Source of the DNA: an uncultured bacterium
Lineage (GTDB): Bacteria > Arandabacterota > Arandabacteria > Arandabacterales > JALGWA01
Reading direction: 5' to 3'
DNA length: 64,000 nt
Assembly (NCBI GenBank): GCA_964604955.1
Contig: CAZSBE010000002.1
Span: forward strand, 194-64,193
Under the pieces are notes generated by a model. That model saw only the letters and a program-made list of their open reading frames with translations. It was not told the origin of the DNA and made no database searches. Position numbers and translations under genes: made by a program. This document shows, in pieces, positions 17,525-56,112 of the stretch. How positions within the stretch are numbered: the first letter of the stretch is position 1; every line of letters starts with the position of its first letter.

Positions 17525-19219
17525 TCACCTCCGCACCAGCACGACAGGCATCTTCGAGTGAATCGTCCGCCCGCCGCCGGTGGGCGAGGCCTCCAGAAGG
17601 ACTATATAGACTCCGATCGGCGCCGGGCGCCCGTCCTTCACGCTGCCGTCCCAGAAGGTGATCCTTCTCTCCTCAACCAGGTCCCCGTCCAGAAGCGTCT
17701 TGAACGGCCGGCCGTTGATGTCGAACACCTTGAGCCTCACGACCGCCGGTGCCGGCATTTCAACCGAGACCGAGAGCAGGTCATCGGCGCCATCGCCGTC
17801 CGGCGAAAAAGTCCCCGGCCGGATCTTGAGATAGCCCCCGGGCTCGGAGAAAGTCACCGACACGCTGTTCGGCCGGCCCGGGCTTGCCGGCGACGACCCG
17901 TAGTGCGGCGACCAGTTGGAGGCACGCTCCGATTTAGCCTGGGAGTCGATCCTCTCGACGGAGCGCCCGGGCTTGCCCCAGGCCGCGCTGTATGCAACCG
18001 AATCCACGCGTGTCCCGAAGGCGTCCCGCAGGACGACCATGTCGGCGTAGCCGCGCGGGCCTTCTGTATCGTTGAGGGTCGGCCAGCCCCCGGCCGGCTT
18101 AAGTGCGGCGCAGCCCGCGCCCGGGTAGGCGGCCAGGAAGTCGTCCTCGTCCTCGACGAGCAGGAGATAACCTCCCGGCGCGAGCAGGGGGCCCGCTTCA
18201 GCCAGCTGCCTCCGCTTACCGCCCGAGTCCTCGAGCGTCCAGCCCTCGAGGCTTACGAACGATGCGCTTCTATTCAGGACCTCCACCCACTCGCATCCGC
18301 CTGAGGCCGGCTTGAAGATGAACTCGTTGACCACCACCGGCGCGGGCCAGATGAGGATGCTAGTCGCGAGCGTGTCGTTGTGATGCCACCTGTCGAGAGG
18401 GTGCGTCTGCCAGAGGCGGGCGCCGTGAAGTCCCTCTCCGACATTGGGGATGTCGACGGCGATCCTGCGGTATGCGCCCGGCTCGATGTCCGCATCGAGC
18501 CGCGACGAGTCCCGGCAGCCGCAACACGCCAGATGCACCCAGGCGCCGGCGCCGCACGAGCTCCCGCCGACATTCGCGATGTTCGAGATCACCTGAAGCG
18601 CGGCGTGGCCGGGTTGCGCATAGCGGGACAGGCAGGCCCTGGTTACGGCGAGGTCGAATGGCGGGTGATTGAAGTCGCCCGGGGAAGGCGCGGGGAACGG
18701 GGAGAAGTCAGCCGAGTTGTCGCCCGTGTCGATGCCGTCGGGGCTGCGGCCCAGGCTCGAGCCCGCCGCCGGCCCCGTTGCCGGAGAGCCTTCGTAGTAC
18801 TCTGCGAAGTCATGGGCGCCCCAGCCCACTACGTCCGCGGCGGACCCGGGCGAGTCGAGCCGGCAGGCGTCGGGTCCATTTTGAAGGTCAAGCGAGGTTA
18901 TGAAATCGGGCGCGGGCCGGACGGCCTCCTCCCCTATGACGAAGAAACCGCCTGCTCTTATGGTGTCAGCGCGCGTGCCCTGCCACTCGCTCTTCCACCT
19001 CCCGGCATGCGCGCCGTTCCCGGTCGCCACTTCATGATAGTGCAGACATATGTCGGCACCGGTTCCGTTGTAGAGCTCTATGAACTCCCGACCGGCGTCC
19101 GCCCCGTCGGGATCGTACAGTACTTCATTGATGACGACACCGGTGGAACCCGCGGAGCATACGCGGGGGAGCGTCAGAAGCAGCAGCGTTGCGATTGTCT
19201 TTTCCCATCCCATCATCAT
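17525..19219 (-). CDS. Secreted lamin-tail-domain (LTD) protein with two LTD repeats and C-terminal FlgD-Ig-like domain
   Basis: Start MMMGWEKTIATLLLLTL signal. LTD signatures are VVINEVLYDP...EFIELYN and VVVNEFIFKP...EWVEVLN. The C-terminal FSPDGDGADD motif fits a FlgD-Ig-like domain. The ORF-track N-terminal extension is translated repeat element. Confidence 0.7.
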   Translation of the reverse strand: MMMGWEKTIATLLLLTLPRVCSAGSTGVVINEVLYDPDGADAGREFIELYNGTGADICLHYHEVATGNGAHAGRWKSEWQGTRADTIRAGGFFVIGEEAVRPAPDFITSLDLQNGPDACRLDSPGSAADVVGWGAHDFAEYYEGSPATGPAAGSSLGRSPDGIDTGDNSADFSPFPAPSPGDFNHPPFDLAVTRACLSRYAQPGHAALQVISNIANVGGSSCGAGAWVHLACCGCRDSSRLDADIEPGAYRRIAVDIPNVGEGLHGARLWQTHPLDRWHHNDTLATSILIWPAPVVVNEFIFKPASGGCEWVEVLNRSASFVSLEGWTLEDSGGKRRQLAEAGPLLAPGGYLLLVEDEDDFLAAYPGAGCAALKPAGGWPTLNDTEGPRGYADMVVLRDAFGTRVDSVAYSAAWGKPGRSVERIDSQAKSERASNWSPHYGSSPASPGRPNSVSVTFSEPGGYLKIRPGTFSPDGDGADDLLSVSVEMPAPAVVRLKVFDINGRPFKTLLDGDLVEERRITFWDGSVKDGRPAPIGVYIVLLEASPTGGGRTIHSKMPVVLVRR

Positions 19220-19270
19220 CACCGCATCAATCGTCGCCCGCCGCCCCGCCCGAGTCAAGCTCCCCATGAG

Positions 19271-19318
19271 GGGGTCAGGTCTTAAAATGCACAAGGGGTC
19301 AGGTCTTGAAATGCACAA
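19271..19318 (+). repeat. REP-like element, two tandem 24-bp units (GGGGTCAGGTCTT[A/G]AAATGCACAA), upstream flank of the transposase gene
   Basis: Direct reading. The units are exact except for one A/G difference. Confidence 0.9.
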
Positions 19319-19372
19319 CACCCGGTGGCCCCACCATTCCCTCCGAATCTGGCACGGAGGTTGCAATTGTAA

Positions 19373-20236
19373 ATGCCCGCTATGGTAAGACCGATACGCA
19401 TTGAAGCCCCGGGAGGTGTCTACCACATCACTTCACGGGGAAACGCCAAACAGACGATCTTCCGGGACGCAGTGGATTACCGGTGTTTCTTCTCCATCCT
19501 GGGGGATGTCGCCGGCGACTGCGGGTGGCAGTGTTACGCCTATTGCCTCATGCCGAATCACTACCACCTGGTGCTGATGACACCCAGCGGAGCGCTCTCG
19601 AGGGGGATGCGGCAGATCAACGGGGTATACGCGCAGAGGTTCCATTGCCGCCATGCTTCCGTCGGCCACGTCTTCCAGGGAAGGTTCAAGTCCATTCTCG
19701 TCGACAGGGAGGCGTACCTGCTTGAAGTGTGCCGCTACGTCGTGCTCAACCCGGTGAGAGCGGGTCTTGTTCGAGAATGCGGCGACTGGCGCTGGTCCAG
19801 CTATCTTGCCACGTTGGGACGCGACCCGAAGCCCTCGTTCCTGGCCAGCGAATGGCTGCTCGGACAGTTCGCCAGGTCTCCGGCGAGGGCGCGGACCGCA
19901 TTCGTCAGATTCGTGGAGGACGGCCTCAAGGCCACCAGCCCGTTGGAGAACATCCGGGGAGGTGTCTTTCTGGGAAACGAGGCCTTTGTGTCCGGTTTCT
20001 CGGCGCAACTTGCCCGCAAGAGGGCCGAGCGCGACTTTCCCCGTGTGCAGCGCCACGCGGACCGGCCGCCGCTCTCGGAGATACTGCGCGCGACGGGGGG
20101 AAGCCCCCGGACAGGCCGGCAGATCGCGGAGGCGCGGGAGCGCTGGGGCTACACCATCACGGAGATTGCGCGGTATCTTCATCTGCACCGGAACACGGTC
20201 GCGGCTCTCGCAAGAAGAGCGGGCGAGCAGGACTGA
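19373..20236 (+). CDS. Y1 HUH tyrosine transposase, IS200/IS605-like and REP-associated (RAYT-type), with C-terminal HTH region
   Basis: 287 aa. HuH motif HYHLVL. Downstream catalytic Tyr region RWSSYLAT. It is the only plus-strand gene in the window. It is flanked by inverted copies of the short repeat. Confidence 0.75.
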   Translation: MPAMVRPIRIEAPGGVYHITSRGNAKQTIFRDAVDYRCFFSILGDVAGDCGWQCYAYCLMPNHYHLVLMTPSGALSRGMRQINGVYAQRFHCRHASVGHVFQGRFKSILVDREAYLLEVCRYVVLNPVRAGLVRECGDWRWSSYLATLGRDPKPSFLASEWLLGQFARSPARARTAFVRFVEDGLKATSPLENIRGGVFLGNEAFVSGFSAQLARKRAERDFPRVQRHADRPPLSEILRATGGSPRTGRQIAEARERWGYTITEIARYLHLHRNTVAALARRAGEQD

Positions 20237-20254
20237 CCCGGAGCAGCCCGGGCT

Positions 20255-20290
20255 TGTGCATTTTAAGACCTGACCCCGGGGTCTGACCCC
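20255..20290 (-). repeat. Inverted REP-like unit (TTGTGCATTTTAAGACCTGACCCC) plus palindromic tail GGGGTC-T-GACCCC, downstream flank of the transposase
   Basis: It is the exact reverse complement of the first unit at 19271. It also supplies the last codons and stop of gpmA. Confidence 0.9.
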
Positions 20291-21033
20291 GTGGGCCCGG
20301 CCTGGTCCGCGACAGACCGTTTGGCGCGCTCGACATCTTCCGGGTCACCGAGATAGCGGGACCTCAACGGCTTGAGTCCGTCGTCGAGTTCGTAGACGAG
20401 CGGTATGCCTGTCGGTATGTTCAGCCGTACGATCTCATCATCGGAGAGGCCGTCGAGGTACTTGACGAGCGCCCGCAGGCTGTTCCCATGGGCGGAGATG
20501 ATGGCGCGGCGGCCCGACTCGATCGCCGGGGCTATCGCCTCGTGCCAGTAGGGAAGAAAACGCGCGACGGTATCCGCCAGGCTCTCGGTCAGCGGTATGT
20601 CACTTTCATTCATGTCTCTGTAGCGCGGATCGTGCCCGGGATACCGCGGGTCCGATTTATCCAGGGGCGGCGGCTTCACGTCATAGCTGCGTCTCCACTC
20701 CATTACCTTTTCTGCGCCGAACTTCGCGGCCGTCTCGGCCTTGTTGAGGCCCTGGAGCGCGCCGTAATGCCGCTCGTTGAGTCTCCAGGACTTCTCCACC
20801 GGTATGTGCAGCAGCCCCATCTCCTCGAGCACGATGTCGAGGGTGTGTATGGCCCGTTTCAGAACTGAAGTGAAGGCGATGTCGAAAACGTAGCCTTCCT
20901 GTGAAAGGAGAGCCGCGGCTTTGTGGGCTTCCTCCACGCCCCTCGCCGAAAGGCCGACGTCGGTCCAGCCCGTGAACCTGTTCTCCTTATTCCAGGTGCT
21001 TTCACCATGTCTCAAGAGCACGAGTCTGTGCAT
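20263..21033 (-). CDS. gpmA: 2,3-bisphosphoglycerate-dependent phosphoglycerate mutase
   Basis: [10 protein letters not shown] phosphohistidine motif, length, and overall dPGM similarity. The C-terminal ...DPGVRS-stop is encoded inside the repeat element. Confidence 0.9.
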
Positions 21034-21034
21034 A

Positions 21035-22084
21035 TTACGCTATCGTCACCTCGTTCGAGAGATATACATCCTGTATGGCATTGAGGATCGCAATGCCGTC
21101 CGCCATCGGTTTTTGAAACGCCTTCCTCCCGGAGATAAGACCCATCCCTCCCGCGCGCTTGTTGATGACTGCTGTCCTCACCGCCTGGGCCATGTCGTTC
21201 TCGCCGGACGCGCCGCCGGAGTTTATGAGTCCCACCCTGCCCATGTAACAGTTCGCCACCTGGTAGCGCGTGAGGTCGATTGGATGGTCGCTCGTCAGCT
21301 CCGTATAGACCTTCTCATGGGTCTTGCCGAAGCCGACCGCCGTGAAGCCGCCGTTGTTCTCGGGCTGCTTCTGCTTGACGATGTCGGCCTCTATGGTCGC
21401 GGCGAGATGGTTGGCCTGGCCTGTAAGGTCGGCGGCCAGGTGATAGTCCTTGTCCTTTTTGAACGCTGGGTTCCGGAGATATGCCCAGAGTATGGTCATC
21501 ATGCCGAGCTCATGGGCGTATTCAAAAGATTCCGATATCTCGACGATCTGCCGGTTACTCTCCGCCGACCCATAGTATATAGTAGCCCCGACAGCGACCG
21601 CTCCCATATCGAAAGCCTGGTCCACGCTCGCAAACAGGATCTGGTCGTGTTTGTTGGGATAGGTCAGGAGCTCATTGTGGTTGATCTTGAGTATGAACGG
21701 GATTCTGTGGGCATACTTGCGCGCCACCGAGCCGAGAACCCCGAGGGTCGAGGCCACGCCGTTACAGCCGCCTTCAATTGCTAACCTTACAATGTTCTCG
21801 GGATCGAAGTACATTGGATTCGGGGCGAAGGACGCGCCCGCCGTATGTTCGATGCCCTGGTCGACCGGCAGGATGGAGACGTATCCGGTGCCGGCGAGCC
21901 TTCCGGTGCCGGCGAGCGCATGCATGCTGCGCATCACCTGAATCGGTCGGTCCGACTCCCTGACGACGCGGTCGATGAAGTCGCCGCCAGGAAGATGGAG
22001 GTTCTCCCTGGGGATTGTCTCACATTTGTGGCCCAGCAGGTAGTCGGCCTCCGGGCCCAGAAGCTTGCGTATCTCAGTTGCCAT
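21035..22084 (-). CDS. fbaB: Class I fructose-bisphosphate aldolase (FbaB/DhnA type)
   Basis: It matches E. coli FbaB closely along its length ([38 protein letters not shown]). Confidence 0.9.
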
Positions 22085-22104
22085 CTCAAAACCTCCTCAG
22101 GCGG

Positions 22105-22839
22105 CTAGCCCAGGTGGGGCTTGCCGACAACGCTCATGTAAACCACACTCTCTTCGGCCCCGTCCACGCCGATTATCTTATTCACCTCTTCGTCGAAGAG
22201 CGCGCCGATCTGGCACGAGCCCAGGCCGATCGCCGTCGCGGCCAGCGCCAGGTTCTCGCCGATGTGACCGGCATCGAGATATATGTATCTGTATGCGCGC
22301 TGCCCGTACTTCCACCTGGACCTCTGGAATATGCCCGTCCAGACTAGGATGGCCGCCGCCTCCATGCACATCTTCTGGCCCAGCGCGGCGATGGCGATCT
22401 CGCTCGAGAAGTCCCCCTCGCTGATGGCCTCCAGGCAGTGCTCCTTCACCGAGTAGTGGTAGACACCGGCCGGTATTCCCTCGACCCTGTTCACCACGAC
22501 ATATGTCTCAATCGGATAGAGCGCGCCCGCCGACGGCGCAGTCCGAAACTCGGAGCCCCGCTCGGTCCTCCGCACTCCGGTCGACGCCCAGAGCAGGTAT
22601 GAGAGGTCGTCGGGCGTGAGCGGGTCCTTCGCGTAGTGCCTTATGCTCTTGCGCTTGAGCAGAGCTTCATCCAGGGGCAGGGTCTCCCTCTTGCTCTTGC
22701 AGGCGAGTTCGATTCTCGGGGCATCCGGGTACTCTTTGTAGACTTCGGGCTTCGAGGCCCAGTCGAGCCCGCCGCCGGGCATCCTGTCGCGATGGTACTT
22801 GGTCTTCTCCTGAAACTCGTCCCCTACGCGTTCGGTCAT
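22105..22839 (-). CDS. SagB/ThcOx-type nitroreductase-fold dehydrogenase
   Basis: 244 aa. Nitroreductase-like fold with the SagB-type pattern RSIRHY...PSAGALYP. Confidence 0.65.
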   Translation of the reverse strand: MTERVGDEFQEKTKYHRDRMPGGGLDWASKPEVYKEYPDAPRIELACKSKRETLPLDEALLKRKSIRHYAKDPLTPDDLSYLLWASTGVRRTERGSEFRTAPSAGALYPIETYVVVNRVEGIPAGVYHYSVKEHCLEAISEGDFSSEIAIAALGQKMCMEAAAILVWTGIFQRSRWKYGQRAYRYIYLDAGHIGENLALAATAIGLGSCQIGALFDEEVNKIIGVDGAEESVVYMSVVGKPHLG

Positions 22840-22870
22840 TTCAAATCACCTCGTCTGGTTCCGGATGGCG

Positions 22871-22919
22871 TTGTGCATTTCAAGACCTGACCCCGTTGTG
22901 CATTTCAAGACCTGACCCC
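22871..22919 (-). repeat. REP-like element, two tandem units (TTGTGCATTTCAAGACCTGACCCC), overlapping the 3' end of sdhB
   Basis: Direct reading. A 1-nt spacer separates the units. Confidence 0.9.
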
Positions 22920-23687
22920 GTCGGGGGCTTTGCCGGCGTCGGATATCTCCCGGCGCGCGGCGCCTATCGCCATGTTCGGTGGAACCTGCTTGGGGCAGAC
23001 CTTCTTGCAGTTGGTATGGAATCGACAACTCCACCAGCCCCCCCGGTCGTTGGCGAGCATGAGCCGGGCATCGTCATCCGGCTCCCTGGTGTCGATGTGA
23101 AACCTGTAGAGCTTGGCGAGCGCGGCGGGGCCCATGTAGCCGGGATCCTCCGCGTTCACCGGGCATGCACCGAAGCACGCGGCGCACAGAATACAGTTGG
23201 TGTAGGGCTCGAGCGCGCGCACGGCCGCCGGGTCCATAAGGTACTCGCCCTCGCCCGGCCCGCGCGCGGGCTTGAGAACCGGCTCCACGGCGCGGTAGTA
23301 TTCGAAGAACCGGGTCATGTCCACGACAAGGTCCTTGATGACCGGAAGATGCGGAAGGGGTTCGATGAGGACCTCGCTCTCCGGGTCCCACTCGACCTTC
23401 GCTTCGAGCGCGGCATATGGCTTCAGGTCCACCTCTGCGGCGCCGGCAAGCAGCACCTCGACCTGCGTGCGGCAGGCGAGCCGCGGCACCCTGTTAATCA
23501 GCATGGCGCAGTTGCCGCAGACGGCCCCGCGGCAGGAATATCTCAGTGAGAGTGAGTCGTCGATCTCGTCCTGAACCTGAAAGAGGGCGCCCAGCACGGA
23601 CATGCCCGGCCGGGGCTCGATCTCGAAGGTATCGTAACGGCTCTTCCCCTCATCGGGGTCGAAACGGCGGATCTTGAGGATTATCAT
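22905..23687 (-). CDS. sdhB: Succinate dehydrogenase/fumarate reductase iron-sulfur subunit
   Basis: [2Fe-2S] CRGAVCGNCAM and [4Fe-4S] CILCAACFGACP motifs. The C-terminal ...GVRS-stop comes from the repeat. Confidence 0.9.
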   Translation of the reverse strand: MIILKIRRFDPDEGKSRYDTFEIEPRPGMSVLGALFQVQDEIDDSLSLRYSCRGAVCGNCAMLINRVPRLACRTQVEVLLAGAAEVDLKPYAALEAKVEWDPESEVLIEPLPHLPVIKDLVVDMTRFFEYYRAVEPVLKPARGPGEGEYLMDPAAVRALEPYTNCILCAACFGACPVNAEDPGYMGPAALAKLYRFHIDTREPDDDARLMLANDRGGWWSCRFHTNCKKVCPKQVPPNMAIGAARREISDAGKAPDGVRS

Positions 23688-25411
23688 CAGTAGACACGCT
23701 CCTTCACCGGGAACCTTCCGAGCCTGACGGGCGCGTACTCGAGTTCGGCCTGCCCGTCGCGGAGATAGGTCATGGTGTGCACGAGGAAGTTCACGTCGTC
23801 GCGCCCGGGGTAGTCATCACGTGCGTGCGCGCCGCGGCTCTCTTCTCTGGCAAGCGCGCCCATCGCCACGACCTCACCGATTTCCATCATGGCCTGGAGC
23901 TCCAGAGCGTATACAAGCGCCTGGTTGAAGACCCGGGACTTGCTGTCGATATAGACTTTTCTGCATCGCTCCTTGAGGTCCCGCACCTCCGCCAGGCCCT
24001 TCTCCATCTTCGCCCCGCTCCGGTACACGCCGAAGTTCTCGAACAGGGTATTCCTGATAGCCGCCCTGAGTCCGGCGACGTGTTCGCCCCCGCGTCGGCC
24101 CAGAAGCTCGTCAATCCGGGAGCGTTCACCCGCGACCTTCGCCTTCGCGGCCTCCCCGGAGGGCGCCCCGGCTTGCGCGCAGGCCGCTGCCATCGCCGCC
24201 CCGGAGAGCTTCCCGAAGACCACGGTCTCGAGAAGCGAGTTTCCCCCGAGGCGGTTGGAGCCGTGGACACTCACGCATGCGCATTCGCCGCCAGCGTATA
24301 GCCCTGGAATCGCAGTCGCTCCGTCGTTACCGCAGGCCACACCGCCCATGGAGTAGTGCTGGCCGGGCTGGACGGGAATGGGCGAGGCGACCGGGTCGAC
24401 TCCCGCGAAGTCCAGTGCGATCTGCCGTATGCCCGGCAGCCGCTCGGTGATCTTCTCGCGCCCCAGATGCGTGAGGTCGAGATGAACGTATTCGTCTTCG
24501 AATCCCCGGCCCTCGTTTACTTCGGTCTGTATCGCCCTCGCCACGATGTCGCGCGGCGCGAGTTCCATGGCCTCGGGGGCATAGTCCCTCATGAAGCGTT
24601 CGTGCCTGTTGTTGTAAAGGTAGCCGCCTTCGCCCCTCGCGCCCTCCGTGATGAGGATATTGGTGCCGAAGAGCGTGGTCGGATGGAATTGAATGAACTC
24701 CATGTCCTTCAGCGGCACGCCGGCGCGGAAGGCCAGCGCCGCGCCGTCGCCGGTGTTAATCAGGGCGTTGGTCGAGCGCGCGAAAAGGCGGCCGTAGCCT
24801 CCCGTGGCCAGGAGCACGGCCTTCGCCCGGAAACCGTGCAGCGTCCCGTCGGCGATGTTCATGGCCACGAGGCCGGTGCACCTCCCGTCTTCCAGCACAA
24901 GCGATGTAGCGAAGTACTCGTCATAGTACGTGATGTCCACCGCCGTCAGTTGCTCGTAAAGGGTGTGGAGAAGGTTCCGGCCGGTGCGGTCCGCGGCATA
25001 ACAGGTACGGGGGAACCCGGCTCCCCCGAACGGGCGCTGGGCGATCCGGCCGTCGTCGAAGCGCGAGAAGACGGTGCCCATGTGCTCCATCTCGATTACT
25101 GCGCCCGGGGCCTCCCTCGTCATTATCTCCACAGAGTCCTGGTCGGCGAGATAGTCCGAGCCCTTCACGGTATCGAAGGCGTGGAGTTCCCAGGAGTCGT
25201 CCTCGCCCCCGGGGGAGTTGGCCAGCGATGCGTTGATGCCTCCTTGGGCGGCGACCGAGTGGGACCGAAGCGGATGCACTTTGGACACGACCGCTACTGA
25301 GCAACCGCCTCTTGCTGCTTCTAGGGCCGCCCTCAGTCCGGTCAGCCCTCCGCCGACTGTGATCACATCGTAAGAGTGCAGCGTATGGTCATTCATGTCG
25401 TCCCACTCCAC
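23687..25411 (-). CDS. sdhA: Succinate dehydrogenase/fumarate reductase flavoprotein subunit
   Basis: FAD motif VITVGGGLTGLRAALEAA, the covalent-FAD histidine context SHSVAAQGG, and overall SdhA/FrdA similarity. The start could be 15 nt downstream. Confidence 0.9.
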   Translation of the reverse strand: MEWDDMNDHTLHSYDVITVGGGLTGLRAALEAARGGCSVAVVSKVHPLRSHSVAAQGGINASLANSPGGEDDSWELHAFDTVKGSDYLADQDSVEIMTREAPGAVIEMEHMGTVFSRFDDGRIAQRPFGGAGFPRTCYAADRTGRNLLHTLYEQLTAVDITYYDEYFATSLVLEDGRCTGLVAMNIADGTLHGFRAKAVLLATGGYGRLFARSTNALINTGDGAALAFRAGVPLKDMEFIQFHPTTLFGTNILITEGARGEGGYLYNNRHERFMRDYAPEAMELAPRDIVARAIQTEVNEGRGFEDEYVHLDLTHLGREKITERLPGIRQIALDFAGVDPVASPIPVQPGQHYSMGGVACGNDGATAIPGLYAGGECACVSVHGSNRLGGNSLLETVVFGKLSGAAMAAACAQAGAPSGEAAKAKVAGERSRIDELLGRRGGEHVAGLRAAIRNTLFENFGVYRSGAKMEKGLAEVRDLKERCRKVYIDSKSRVFNQALVYALELQAMMEIGEVVAMGALAREESRGAHARDDYPGRDDVNFLVHTMTYLRDGQAELEYAPVRLGRFPVKERVY

Positions 25412-25557
25412 ATGAGTATTCGGGTGTCACAGGATCCGCGCGGTTCTCCCCTTTGGATGACGGCAAGGGGCAGCAGGTTCCCACGCGTGGTCGATTCATA
25501 TCACCCGGTCGCCGCGAGGTCAAGAACGGGAGCCGGCGGACGGAAAGAGGGGCCAGG

Positions 25558-25626
25558 TGTGCAATTCAAGACCTGACCCCTGTGCAATTCAAGACCTGAC
25601 CCCTGTGCAATTCAAGACCTGACCCC
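25558..25626 (-). repeat. REP-like element, three tandem 23-bp variant units (TGTGCAATTCAAGACCTGACCCC)
   Basis: Direct reading. Three exact copies lie between the cytochrome c gene end and the sdhA start. Confidence 0.9.
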
Positions 25627-25633
25627 ATCCGGG

Positions 25634-26083
25634 CTACTTTGTTTTCTCCACCTTGGCCGGCTTCACAGAAGCGCAATATGCGACCAGGTCCGTAAGCCTC
25701 TGGTCGTCCCACGCCAGCGCCTGGCCCTTAAGAGGGTTCGTGATACAGTAATTCACGACCTGATCCAGCGTCATGACCCTCTTGGCCCCCGCCATAAACA
25801 TGGGGTACTTGGCCCCGAGATTGTCGAACGCCTTCAGGGTCATGTCGCCCATCTTGGCGTCCTTCATGCCACCGTTCATGTGACAGTCATTGCAGGTCTT
25901 CCCCGACGTACCCAGCTTCTTGTCGCTGAAGAGAGCGAAGCCCCGCTCGACTGACTTCGCCAGCTCAGTCACCGGATCCATCTTTGCCATCTCCTCTTTC
26001 TTCTCCTGGGCATAACTCACCACGACACTGCCGACCATGACGGCCAGCAATAGGAAGATCACCATCCTGTTCATTTTCGTCAC
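25634..26083 (-). CDS. Secreted mono-haem c-type cytochrome
   Basis: Signal peptide. Single CNDCH haem-binding motif. 149 aa. Confidence 0.75.
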   Translation of the reverse strand: MTKMNRMVIFLLLAVMVGSVVVSYAQEKKEEMAKMDPVTELAKSVERGFALFSDKKLGTSGKTCNDCHMNGGMKDAKMGDMTLKAFDNLGAKYPMFMAGAKRVMTLDQVVNYCITNPLKGQALAWDDQRLTDLVAYCASVKPAKVEKTK

Positions 26084-26158
26084 CTCCCTTCACCGAAAAA
26101 GTATCGAGTCGAGAGCCCCGGGCTATCTGAATCCTTGAGCCGGACCCCGAAGCCCCGG

Positions 26159-26917
26159 CTAGAGCGTCTTAAGATACTCGACGAGGTCGGCGGTCTCCTT
26201 CCCGGAGAGCGAGTTAAAGGACGGCATCGTGCCGACCGGTTCCCTGAGCTGGCTTATCACGTTCTCCACGGTGGCCGGCCTGCCGCTCTCCGGAAGCGCG
26301 TCCTTCTTTAAGAAGCCCTTCAGGCCGGGCGCATAGCCGGACTCGTCATTGTCGGTCGCGTGGCATGAGCTGCAGTGAGCCTCGAAAACCAGGCGCCCGG
26401 CGGCCGCCTCTCCCAGGGCTGATCCTCCCGCGGCCGTTCCGACCGCACCCTCACCTGCCGCGCCCTCACCCACCGCGACTTCACCTTCCGCGCCGGCGCC
26501 GCCGGAGGCGGCTTCCCGCACGAAGAAATAGCCCGCTGAAGTGCCTGCGACGACTACGGCCAGCACGAAAGCGATAATGCCCATTGGCGGCACGAAGTTG
26601 AGCAGGCCCTTGAACCACCTGACGATCGTTATCTTCACCGCCAGCACGCCGATCAGGGCAAGCGCCGCAACGCCGTGCAGGGCGGCGCGATTCGAGATCC
26701 GGTCGCCGACACGCGCCACATAATGAATGCAGATGATACTGGTTACGATCAGCAGGATTATGAAGATCCACCCCATGGCCCTGTGCAGCCTGCGGAGCGA
26801 CAGCGGACTCGTTTTGTGCTCCGTCACTCCCATGAGGCTCAGCATCGCGAGTACGGCCGCGGCGCCCGCAGCCATGAAGACGACCGCGAGAATGGATTTA
26901 AGCATGAACATCGACAT
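26159..26917 (-). CDS. Four-TM membrane protein with C-terminal c-type cytochrome domain
   Basis: Four hydrophobic helices containing conserved His residues, a Gly/Ala/Glu-rich linker, and a CSSCH haem motif. Confidence 0.65.
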   Translation of the reverse strand: MSMFMLKSILAVVFMAAGAAAVLAMLSLMGVTEHKTSPLSLRRLHRAMGWIFIILLIVTSIICIHYVARVGDRISNRAALHGVAALALIGVLAVKITIVRWFKGLLNFVPPMGIIAFVLAVVVAGTSAGYFFVREAASGGAGAEGEVAVGEGAAGEGAVGTAAGGSALGEAAAGRLVFEAHCSSCHATDNDESGYAPGLKGFLKKDALPESGRPATVENVISQLREPVGTMPSFNSLSGKETADLVEYLKTL

Positions 26918-56064: not shown

Positions 56065-56108
56065 GGGGTCAGGTCTTCTCCGAGGGGGTCAGGTCTTGAA
56101 ATGCACAA
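56065..56108 (+). repeat. REP-like element: one truncated unit (GGGGTCAGGTCTTCTCCGA) plus one full unit (GGGGTCAGGTCTTGAAATGCACAA)
   Basis: Direct reading. It lies in the intergenic region between holB and the YbbR-like gene. Confidence 0.9.
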
Positions 56109-56112
56109 TGCC

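Follow-up and report, generated by a model that had tools for sequence, protein, structure and literature searches.

The window analysed here, a stretch of 64,000 nucleotides from an uncultured bacterium, contains a short repeat that reaches into the 3' ends of two protein-coding genes and also borders a transposase gene. The features of importance for the argument are the following.

19271 to 19319, plus strand: left-hand terminal repeat beside the transposase gene, consisting of two tandem units whose GGGG end faces outward
19373 to 20236, plus strand: gene of a RAYT/TIRYT-type Y1 HUH transposase of 287 aa with a putative C-terminal HTH (weak HTH_23 match), presumably the enzyme that mobilises the repeat family
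20253 to 20277, minus strand: right terminal repeat of the transposase gene, a single unit with the GGGG end outward, which gives gpmA its GVRS and its TAA
20263 to 21033, minus strand: gpmA ORF, 256 aa, ending in ...GSDPGVRS
20278 to 20290, minus strand: partial ('stutter') left-end copy GGGGTCAGACCCC, now translated in the gpmA tail (...TGSDP)
22870 to 22894, minus strand: second tandem unit, identical to the first
22895 to 22919, minus strand: gene-proximal unit at the 3' end of sdhB
22905 to 23687, minus strand: ORF of an sdhB/frdB iron-sulfur subunit, 260 aa, with a native tail apparently cut after ...GKAPD and fused to the repeat (...GKAPDGVRS)
25556 to 25626, minus strand: three tandem units of period 23, starting 7 nt past the stop of a cytochrome c gene, co-oriented with it and without gene overlap
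56065 to 56109, plus strand: one full unit and a partial copy, 3 nt past the stop of a holB-like gene and opposite to it in orientation

The repeat has a core of 23 nt, GGGGTCAGGTCTTGAAATGCACA, and a unit length of 23–25 nt. In a pattern scan, the copies at 22870–22894 and 22895–22919 were exact matches to GTTGTGCATTTCAAGACCTGACCCC (plus-strand reading), arranged head-to-tail, and Tandem Repeats Finder describes the same region (22869–22921) as 2.1 copies of period 25 with 100% matches. Over the whole window there are nine unit matches with at most three mismatches, distributed over five loci, against 0.00 expected from dinucleotide-preserving shuffles. A stop codon is present in just one of the three frames of the unit, in which GGG GTC AGG TCT TGA/TAA reads as G-V-R-S-stop, and the remaining two frames are open across all 25 nt. 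The inner half of the unit, AAATGCACA (e.g. window 22870–22880), agrees at 7 of 9 positions with the DnaA-box consensus TT[AT]TNCACA; this likeness may be a coincidence, since it is missing from the repeats of more distant transposase homologues. In the spacer between the cytochrome c gene and sdhA, units occur at the orthologous position in relatives too, a few nucleotides past the stop (window 25556–25626; L117 1324–1346; L044 96–118), with three units in the window versus one unit and a partial copy elsewhere.

The product of the ORF at 22905–23687 is an SdhB/FrdB iron-sulfur subunit (TIGR00384, 207.7 bits with a cutoff of 88; Pfam domains Fer2_3 and Fer4), and its gene is located directly behind that of an SdhA-type flavoprotein. 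The last four codons, GGG GTC AGG TCT, and the following TGA all lie within the gene-proximal unit: plus-strand positions 22905–22907 read TCA, which is TGA on the sdhB strand, and 22908–22919 are translated as GVRS. A preliminary description of this DNA had proposed that the tail and the stop of sdhB are encoded by the repeat and that gpmA shares both the tetrapeptide and a repeat-encoded stop. Both statements are correct, the TAA of gpmA being located in the unit at 20253–20277. It had further been stated that two tandem units overlap the sdhB 3' end. Two exact units are indeed present, but the gene-proximal one alone overlaps the gene, whereas the other is entirely contained in the 65-nt spacer between the sdhB stop and the nitroreductase gene (ATG at 22839). 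The array is positioned 30 nt 5' of this ATG, immediately ahead of the ribosome-binding site, in a tightly packed row of co-directional genes. In GpmA, the tail past the family profile corresponds to the DNA between the presumably lost native stop and the TAA of the unit, including the partial copy and the unit itself. For both proteins the family profiles end ahead of the altered tails, at residue 245–248 of 256 in GpmA and at about 244–251 of 260 in SdhB.

Tandem repeats of short period collapse easily during assembly and the window comes from a metagenome-type assembly, which could mean that the ORFs were extended by an assembly or sequencing error in the repeat and that the real proteins end elsewhere. 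Such an artefact is extremely unlikely. Since a metagenome contig from an independent assembly (L149) matches the window with 100% identity along 1057 nt spanning the sdhB junction and the exact 260-aa SdhB product is present in NCBI and JGI records, the junction is not a local assembly error. Furthermore, no earlier in-frame stop is present in the sdhB or gpmA ORF, and the same type of fusion was found in other genes of other genomes.

Stops within the repeat also close spurious ORFs, antisense or out-of-frame, in either orientation of the unit. Examples are the plus-strand ORFs at 18380–19285, 22636–22890, 19767–20273 and 25376–25576, among which the tails ...HEGVRS, ...VVHFKT, ...LVHFKT and ...GVQFKT occur. 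For annotation, such repeat-closed ORFs are a trap for gene callers.

The repeat unit is the terminal inverted repeat of the RAYT/TIRYT-type Y1 HUH transposase encoded at 19373–20236. Inverted units bracket this gene (19271–19319 and 20253–20277), with GGGGTCAG outermost and the GGGG ends directed outward, and the same arrangement of inverted units exists around a syntenic orthologue with 70% identity (L171). The transposase is recognised by Pfam Y1_Tnp (E 1e-10) and by the NCBIfam model NF047646, 'REP-associated tyrosine transposase' (84 bits, cutoff 80). Its sole PDB match is E. coli TnpA_REP (4ER8), with which the HUH (HYH) and Y-x-x-x-NPV motifs align. Residues 250–282 match HTH_23 with an E-value of 3e-4 and a score of 21 bits, under the Pfam cutoff of 24.6, and precomputed matches to HTH_23 or HTH_38 exist for several close homologues. 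Homologues of 44–55% identity from Desulfocapsa, Sulfuricella and Nitrospirae MAGs have repeats of the type GGGGTCA[GC][GA]TCTTG... on both sides, and in a fourth homologue-bearing MAG (L182) the left side alone carries such a repeat. Terminal inverted repeats that share GGGGWSAS are also found at L171, L029 and L178–L180. It is thus probable from the arrangement of gene and repeats that the transposase mobilises the unit.

Two further observations concern the transposase genes. The Sulfuricella MAG (JAQTMN010000004.1, 41013–49220; L178 and L179) contains two identical genes for a 283-aa TIRYT homologue at a distance of 4.3 kb, each with GGGGTCACATCTTGACAT inverted repeats, which is IS-like multi-copy behaviour as compared to the single syntenic gene of the window and L171. 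In another relative (L123 2090–2141, compared to window 20221–21016), the transposase gene, of which the RAYT is 79% identical, directly adjoins an aldolase gene, and gpmA and the right-hand repeat are missing.

The origin of the shared tail can be examined by comparing the same gene ends in related genomes, of which the following are informative.

L117, SdhB: ...GKAPPDKK, with a TGA 15 nt before the unit
L123, SdhB: ...GKVPPEIEDDR, with a TGA 9 nt before the unit
L183, SdhB: ...PDKDDGVR, with the stop within a partial copy, GGGGTCAGGTGA
L184, SdhB: ...PPEIGDGA, without a repeat and with a fumarase gene next
L171, GpmA: ...EDQSRP, with a TAG 24 nt before the unit

The native stops of L117, L123 and L171 are in phase with the stop of the unit. 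When the gpmA regions of the window and L171 are aligned, the window has a gap of 12 nt exactly over the TAG of L171, and in the sdhB alignments a window gap of about 24–28 nt covers the stops of the orthologues. Among the 120 best SdhB homologues, the window alone has the GVRS ending, the common tail being GK.PPE..D... At the orthologous sites the 23-mer is identical at 22–23 of 23 positions, even though SdhB identity is only 77–79% and the spacer alongside is divergent. From one orthologue to another, the repeats occupy the same site but vary in unit number, in spacers and in partial copies.

On this basis we consider, with a probability of about 0.8, that the shared tag arose through a tolerated stop-loss fusion with a transposase end repeat already in place, and not through frame-targeted insertion. 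Copies of the transposase end sequence would have spread through the intergenic DNA of this lineage and its relatives, and the repeats at the sdhB–nitroreductase and gpmA–transposase junctions would predate the split from related species, at a time when the genes still ended at their own stops. The native stops may then have been lost in the window lineage through small in-frame deletions (12 nt in gpmA, about 24–28 nt in sdhB) at the boundary of the repeat, which is unstable, so that translation would enter the unit and end at its sole in-frame stop, giving GVRS, with a protein length that is hardly altered. That the change was a deletion in the window lineage is the probable direction, as judged by parsimony and the consensus tail of the homologues in an unrooted comparison. 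Fusions in the read-through frames would presumably be removed by selection.

A wider view is provided by a census of copies in related genomes, which was based on 177 loci obtained by scanning genome and metagenome collections with the 23-nt core. As many as 56 of these loci are from one MAG, JASFEA01, which is a different species from that of the window and matches it in one 2.5-kb stretch alone, at 79%. The fetched loci and the window together gave 396 copies (at most four mismatches) in 220 clusters, with 317 unique flanks after removal of duplicates. The coding frame in the flanks was assigned with a home-made codon log-odds model that was trained on long ORFs of the same DNA and recovers the genes already known in the window; of the 317 flanks, 189 were unclassifiable. 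The core is almost invariant across copies, with variable flanks. Copies occur as singles, as direct tandem arrays (period 30 in the MAG, 23–25 in the window) and as convergent pairs with the GGGG ends outward; a divergent pair was never found among the census copies. Gene 3' ends account for 96 flanks, with the unit co-oriented with the gene in 73 and opposed in 23. The unit is usually located 2–50 nt past the stop codon, mostly with its GGGG end toward the upstream gene. The 73 co-oriented cases are distributed as follows.

Gene stop located 54 to 4 nt ahead of the unit: 60
TAG sharing the first G of the unit: 6
Stop at +12, giving GVRS: 6
Stop inside a variant unit: 1
Stop beyond the unit (read-through): 0

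The stop thus precedes the unit, at a median of 15 nt, in 66 of the 73 cases if those with a shared TAG are included. The six ORFs that run into a standard co-oriented unit come from five independent loci. Besides gpmA and sdhB of the window, they encode a LOG-family protein (L012, with an orthologue in L115), a CCA/poly(A)-polymerase-like protein (L020, with a TAG variant of the unit) and an FHA-GAF histidine kinase (L048). The earlier suggestion that the element is tolerated at gene ends is supported by this recurrence in related genomes.

It had also been suggested that the element lands in a preferred reading frame, and a tabulation of copies relative to stop codons and frames was proposed as a check. 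In the census, the 396 copies confirmed the proximity to gene 3' ends, whereas a frame preference did not emerge. An element that integrates at gene ends in a preferred frame, bringing its own stop, would agree with the fact that all six ORFs entering a standard unit use the stop-bearing GVRS frame (naive p about 0.001–0.004), and another six genes have a TAG that shares the first G of the unit. However, just 16 of the 66 upstream stops share the phase of the unit's own stop, against 18 and 32 for the other two phases, so that unit placement has no preference for the GVRS frame. Moreover, the orthologues hold the repeats at the same sites past an intact native stop, 9–24 nt away, and the window differs from them by a deletion and not by a new insertion; the variable number and spacing of units at a constant site point in the same direction. 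Frame-targeted insertion is therefore very unlikely. With stop-loss fusion as the preferred explanation, all fusions share one frame because the unit has a stop in one frame out of three and fusions in that frame end at once. The identical tag is probably a passive outcome of the sites where the element accumulates, the single stop-bearing frame and the tolerance of changes in a non-conserved C-terminal tail.

Regarding the insertion sites, no strong target motif was detected beside the GGGG end, only an A-rich leader and an excess of nearby TAA. At 4–8 nt ahead of the GGGG end the flanks of all loci contain 36–47% A in DNA of about 60% GC, and near units, up to 60 nt away, TAA is used as a stop more often than elsewhere (28% vs 16%, p 7e-4). 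A further peculiarity is formed by the partial 'stutter' copies, in which the outer 8–12 nt of the unit (GGGGTCAG...) and 5–7 nt of flank are duplicated directly upstream of full units. They were found at window 20278–20290 and 56065–56084, L117 4009–4023, L171 about 808–821, L183 1177–1189 and many MAG loci, as well as beside the Sulfuricella transposase genes. Orphan GGGGTCAGGTC 11-mers follow this pattern, 27 of 30 having a full unit no more than 40 nt away; the expected total is about 1.4. The stutter copies suggest that the outer end is nicked repeatedly or is a site of template switching.

The preliminary description also considered that the repeat may act as a 3' structural or terminator element, for which the sequence analyses gave no indication. 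The RNA of the sdhB 3' region (22830–22940, minus strand) folds no better than shuffles (z +0.92), and the same applies to RNA and DNA folds of the unit and of dimers, the z-scores being +0.5 to +1.0 overall. A terminator scan detected no terminator-like site, i.e. a GC-rich hairpin with a U-tract, at any repeat locus, and Rfam covariance models gave no matches at E≤1 over 18500–26500.

A more general possibility is that the repeat is a functional 3' element maintained by selection, serving for example as a signal for RNA stability or processing, as a binding site of a protein or as a fail-safe stop, with the overlap with gene stops arising by design. This would fit with the short distance to stop codons, with the conservation of the 23-mer at orthologous sites next to diverged spacers, and with the orientation of direct arrays, which are co-oriented with the upstream gene in 32 versus 9 cases with a single gene-end flank (p 4e-4). 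On the other hand, secondary structure, terminator-like sites and Rfam families are lacking for the repeats as described above, some units in the census are opposed in orientation or located beside gene starts, and the orthologues lack the GVRS tail. Strand-specific single-strand transposition combined with homogenisation by the transposase would account for both the orientation bias and the conservation. Selection for such a function is thus unlikely as the explanation of the shared tail. It is also unlikely, although it can be envisaged, that the 23-mer is an orientation-dependent cis-element, e.g. a single-strand or RNA-level binding site with a built-in fail-safe stop, or a bipartite, non-hairpin recognition site of the Y1 HUH enzyme, of which the outer GGGGWSAS half is accompanied by an inner, DnaA-box-like ATGCACA half that would be read by the C-terminal DnaA_C-like HTH. 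The near-invariance of the unit at orthologous sites and the 32:9 bias could reflect an element function of its own, which passive stop-loss fusion does not need.

Stop-loss fusion as the source of the tag is of relevance for annotation, since repeat-encoded stops put identical short tails (GVRS, GVR) on unrelated proteins, and knowledge of the family avoids their misreading as a signal peptide-like 'tag'. From a biological point of view, the sdhB and gpmA junctions offer a clean comparative case in which a dispersed transposase end would have taken over translation termination after a small deletion. The translation of REP-like repeats at gene ends as such was already known, and just over 10% of intragenic REPs occupy the termini of coding sequences (Di Nocera et al. 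2013, PMC3733652).

In coding insertions of REPs, RPEs and MITEs, such as the Rickettsia RPEs and intragenic REPs, repeat sequence is likewise translated within host proteins. The present case differs from these in that only four codons and a stop are contributed, by way of native-stop loss beside an extragenic copy that was already there, and not by in-frame insertion. As compared to classical REP/RAYT systems and REPINs (E. coli TnpA_REP, PDB 4ER8; Pseudomonas REPINs), the transposase belongs to the same clade, inverted repeats surround an apparently single and vertically inherited gene (synteny of the window and L171), and copies gather close to gene 3' ends, at distances of up to about 20 nt. 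The targets of classical RAYTs are hairpins. The unit described here is not a classical REP, since it has no dyad symmetry and no predicted structure: it is no palindrome, lacks the GTAG/CGTC tag, and folds at 0 to −0.3 kcal/mol, like shuffles. The enzyme, with 287 aa and the weakly matching HTH domain, is about 120 aa longer than E. coli TnpA_REP (165 aa). A likeness to REPINs exists in the related MAG, where convergent pairs make long hairpins, whereas the dispersed loci of the window carry direct tandem units only and no convergent pair. In JASFEA01 the two units of such a pair are spaced at about 119 nt and surround some 96 nt of conserved interior, and the long hairpins into which the pairs fold (z −7 to −9) are REPIN/MITE-like (e.g. 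L013 1056–1197, L051 3154–3296 and L034 6416–6556). That they are internal-deletion derivatives of the transposase element was not supported by a comparison with the window and L171, to the transposase flanks of which the interior is not significantly similar, the MAG's own transposase gene being outside the fetched loci.

To our knowledge, the TIRYT/TIRtron class has so far not been characterised biochemically, and we know of no biochemical demonstration that a Y1 transposase mobilises a non-palindromic unit. The best agreement is nevertheless with this class, which comprises RAYT-like genes flanked by inverted repeats that share GGGGWSAS and are not palindromic REPs, and that are sometimes amplified as dispersed families (Di Nocera et al. 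2013, PMC3733652). The class was equated with TnpA_REP subclass 2.1, the enzymes of which are long proteins with a C-terminal HTH that is DnaA_C/HTH_23-like (Quentin et al. 2018, PMC6006769). The system of the window shares a long RAYT-like Y1 transposase of some 285 aa, in which the C-terminal HTH is putative here (a weak match), the non-palindromic inverted repeats that start with GGGGWSAS (here GGGGTCAG) and flank the gene, and the dispersal of repeats in intergenic DNA as singles, dimers and clusters, here nine copies at five loci. It is different in that the repeat is a new sequence family, the 23-nt core having no match in a literature search, and in its prominent tandem arrays and stutter copies. 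Its abundance also sets it apart, with nine copies in the 64 kb of the window and no fewer than 127 in a 405-kb sample of one related MAG. Within the already known TIRYT/TIRtron class, the element thus forms a family that is new and abundant. It adds a well-sampled member to this class, in which a core that is conserved over several phyla could guide work on binding and cleavage, and it provides material for studying how Y1 enzymes of the TIRYT/TIRtron type recognise an end that is not a hairpin.
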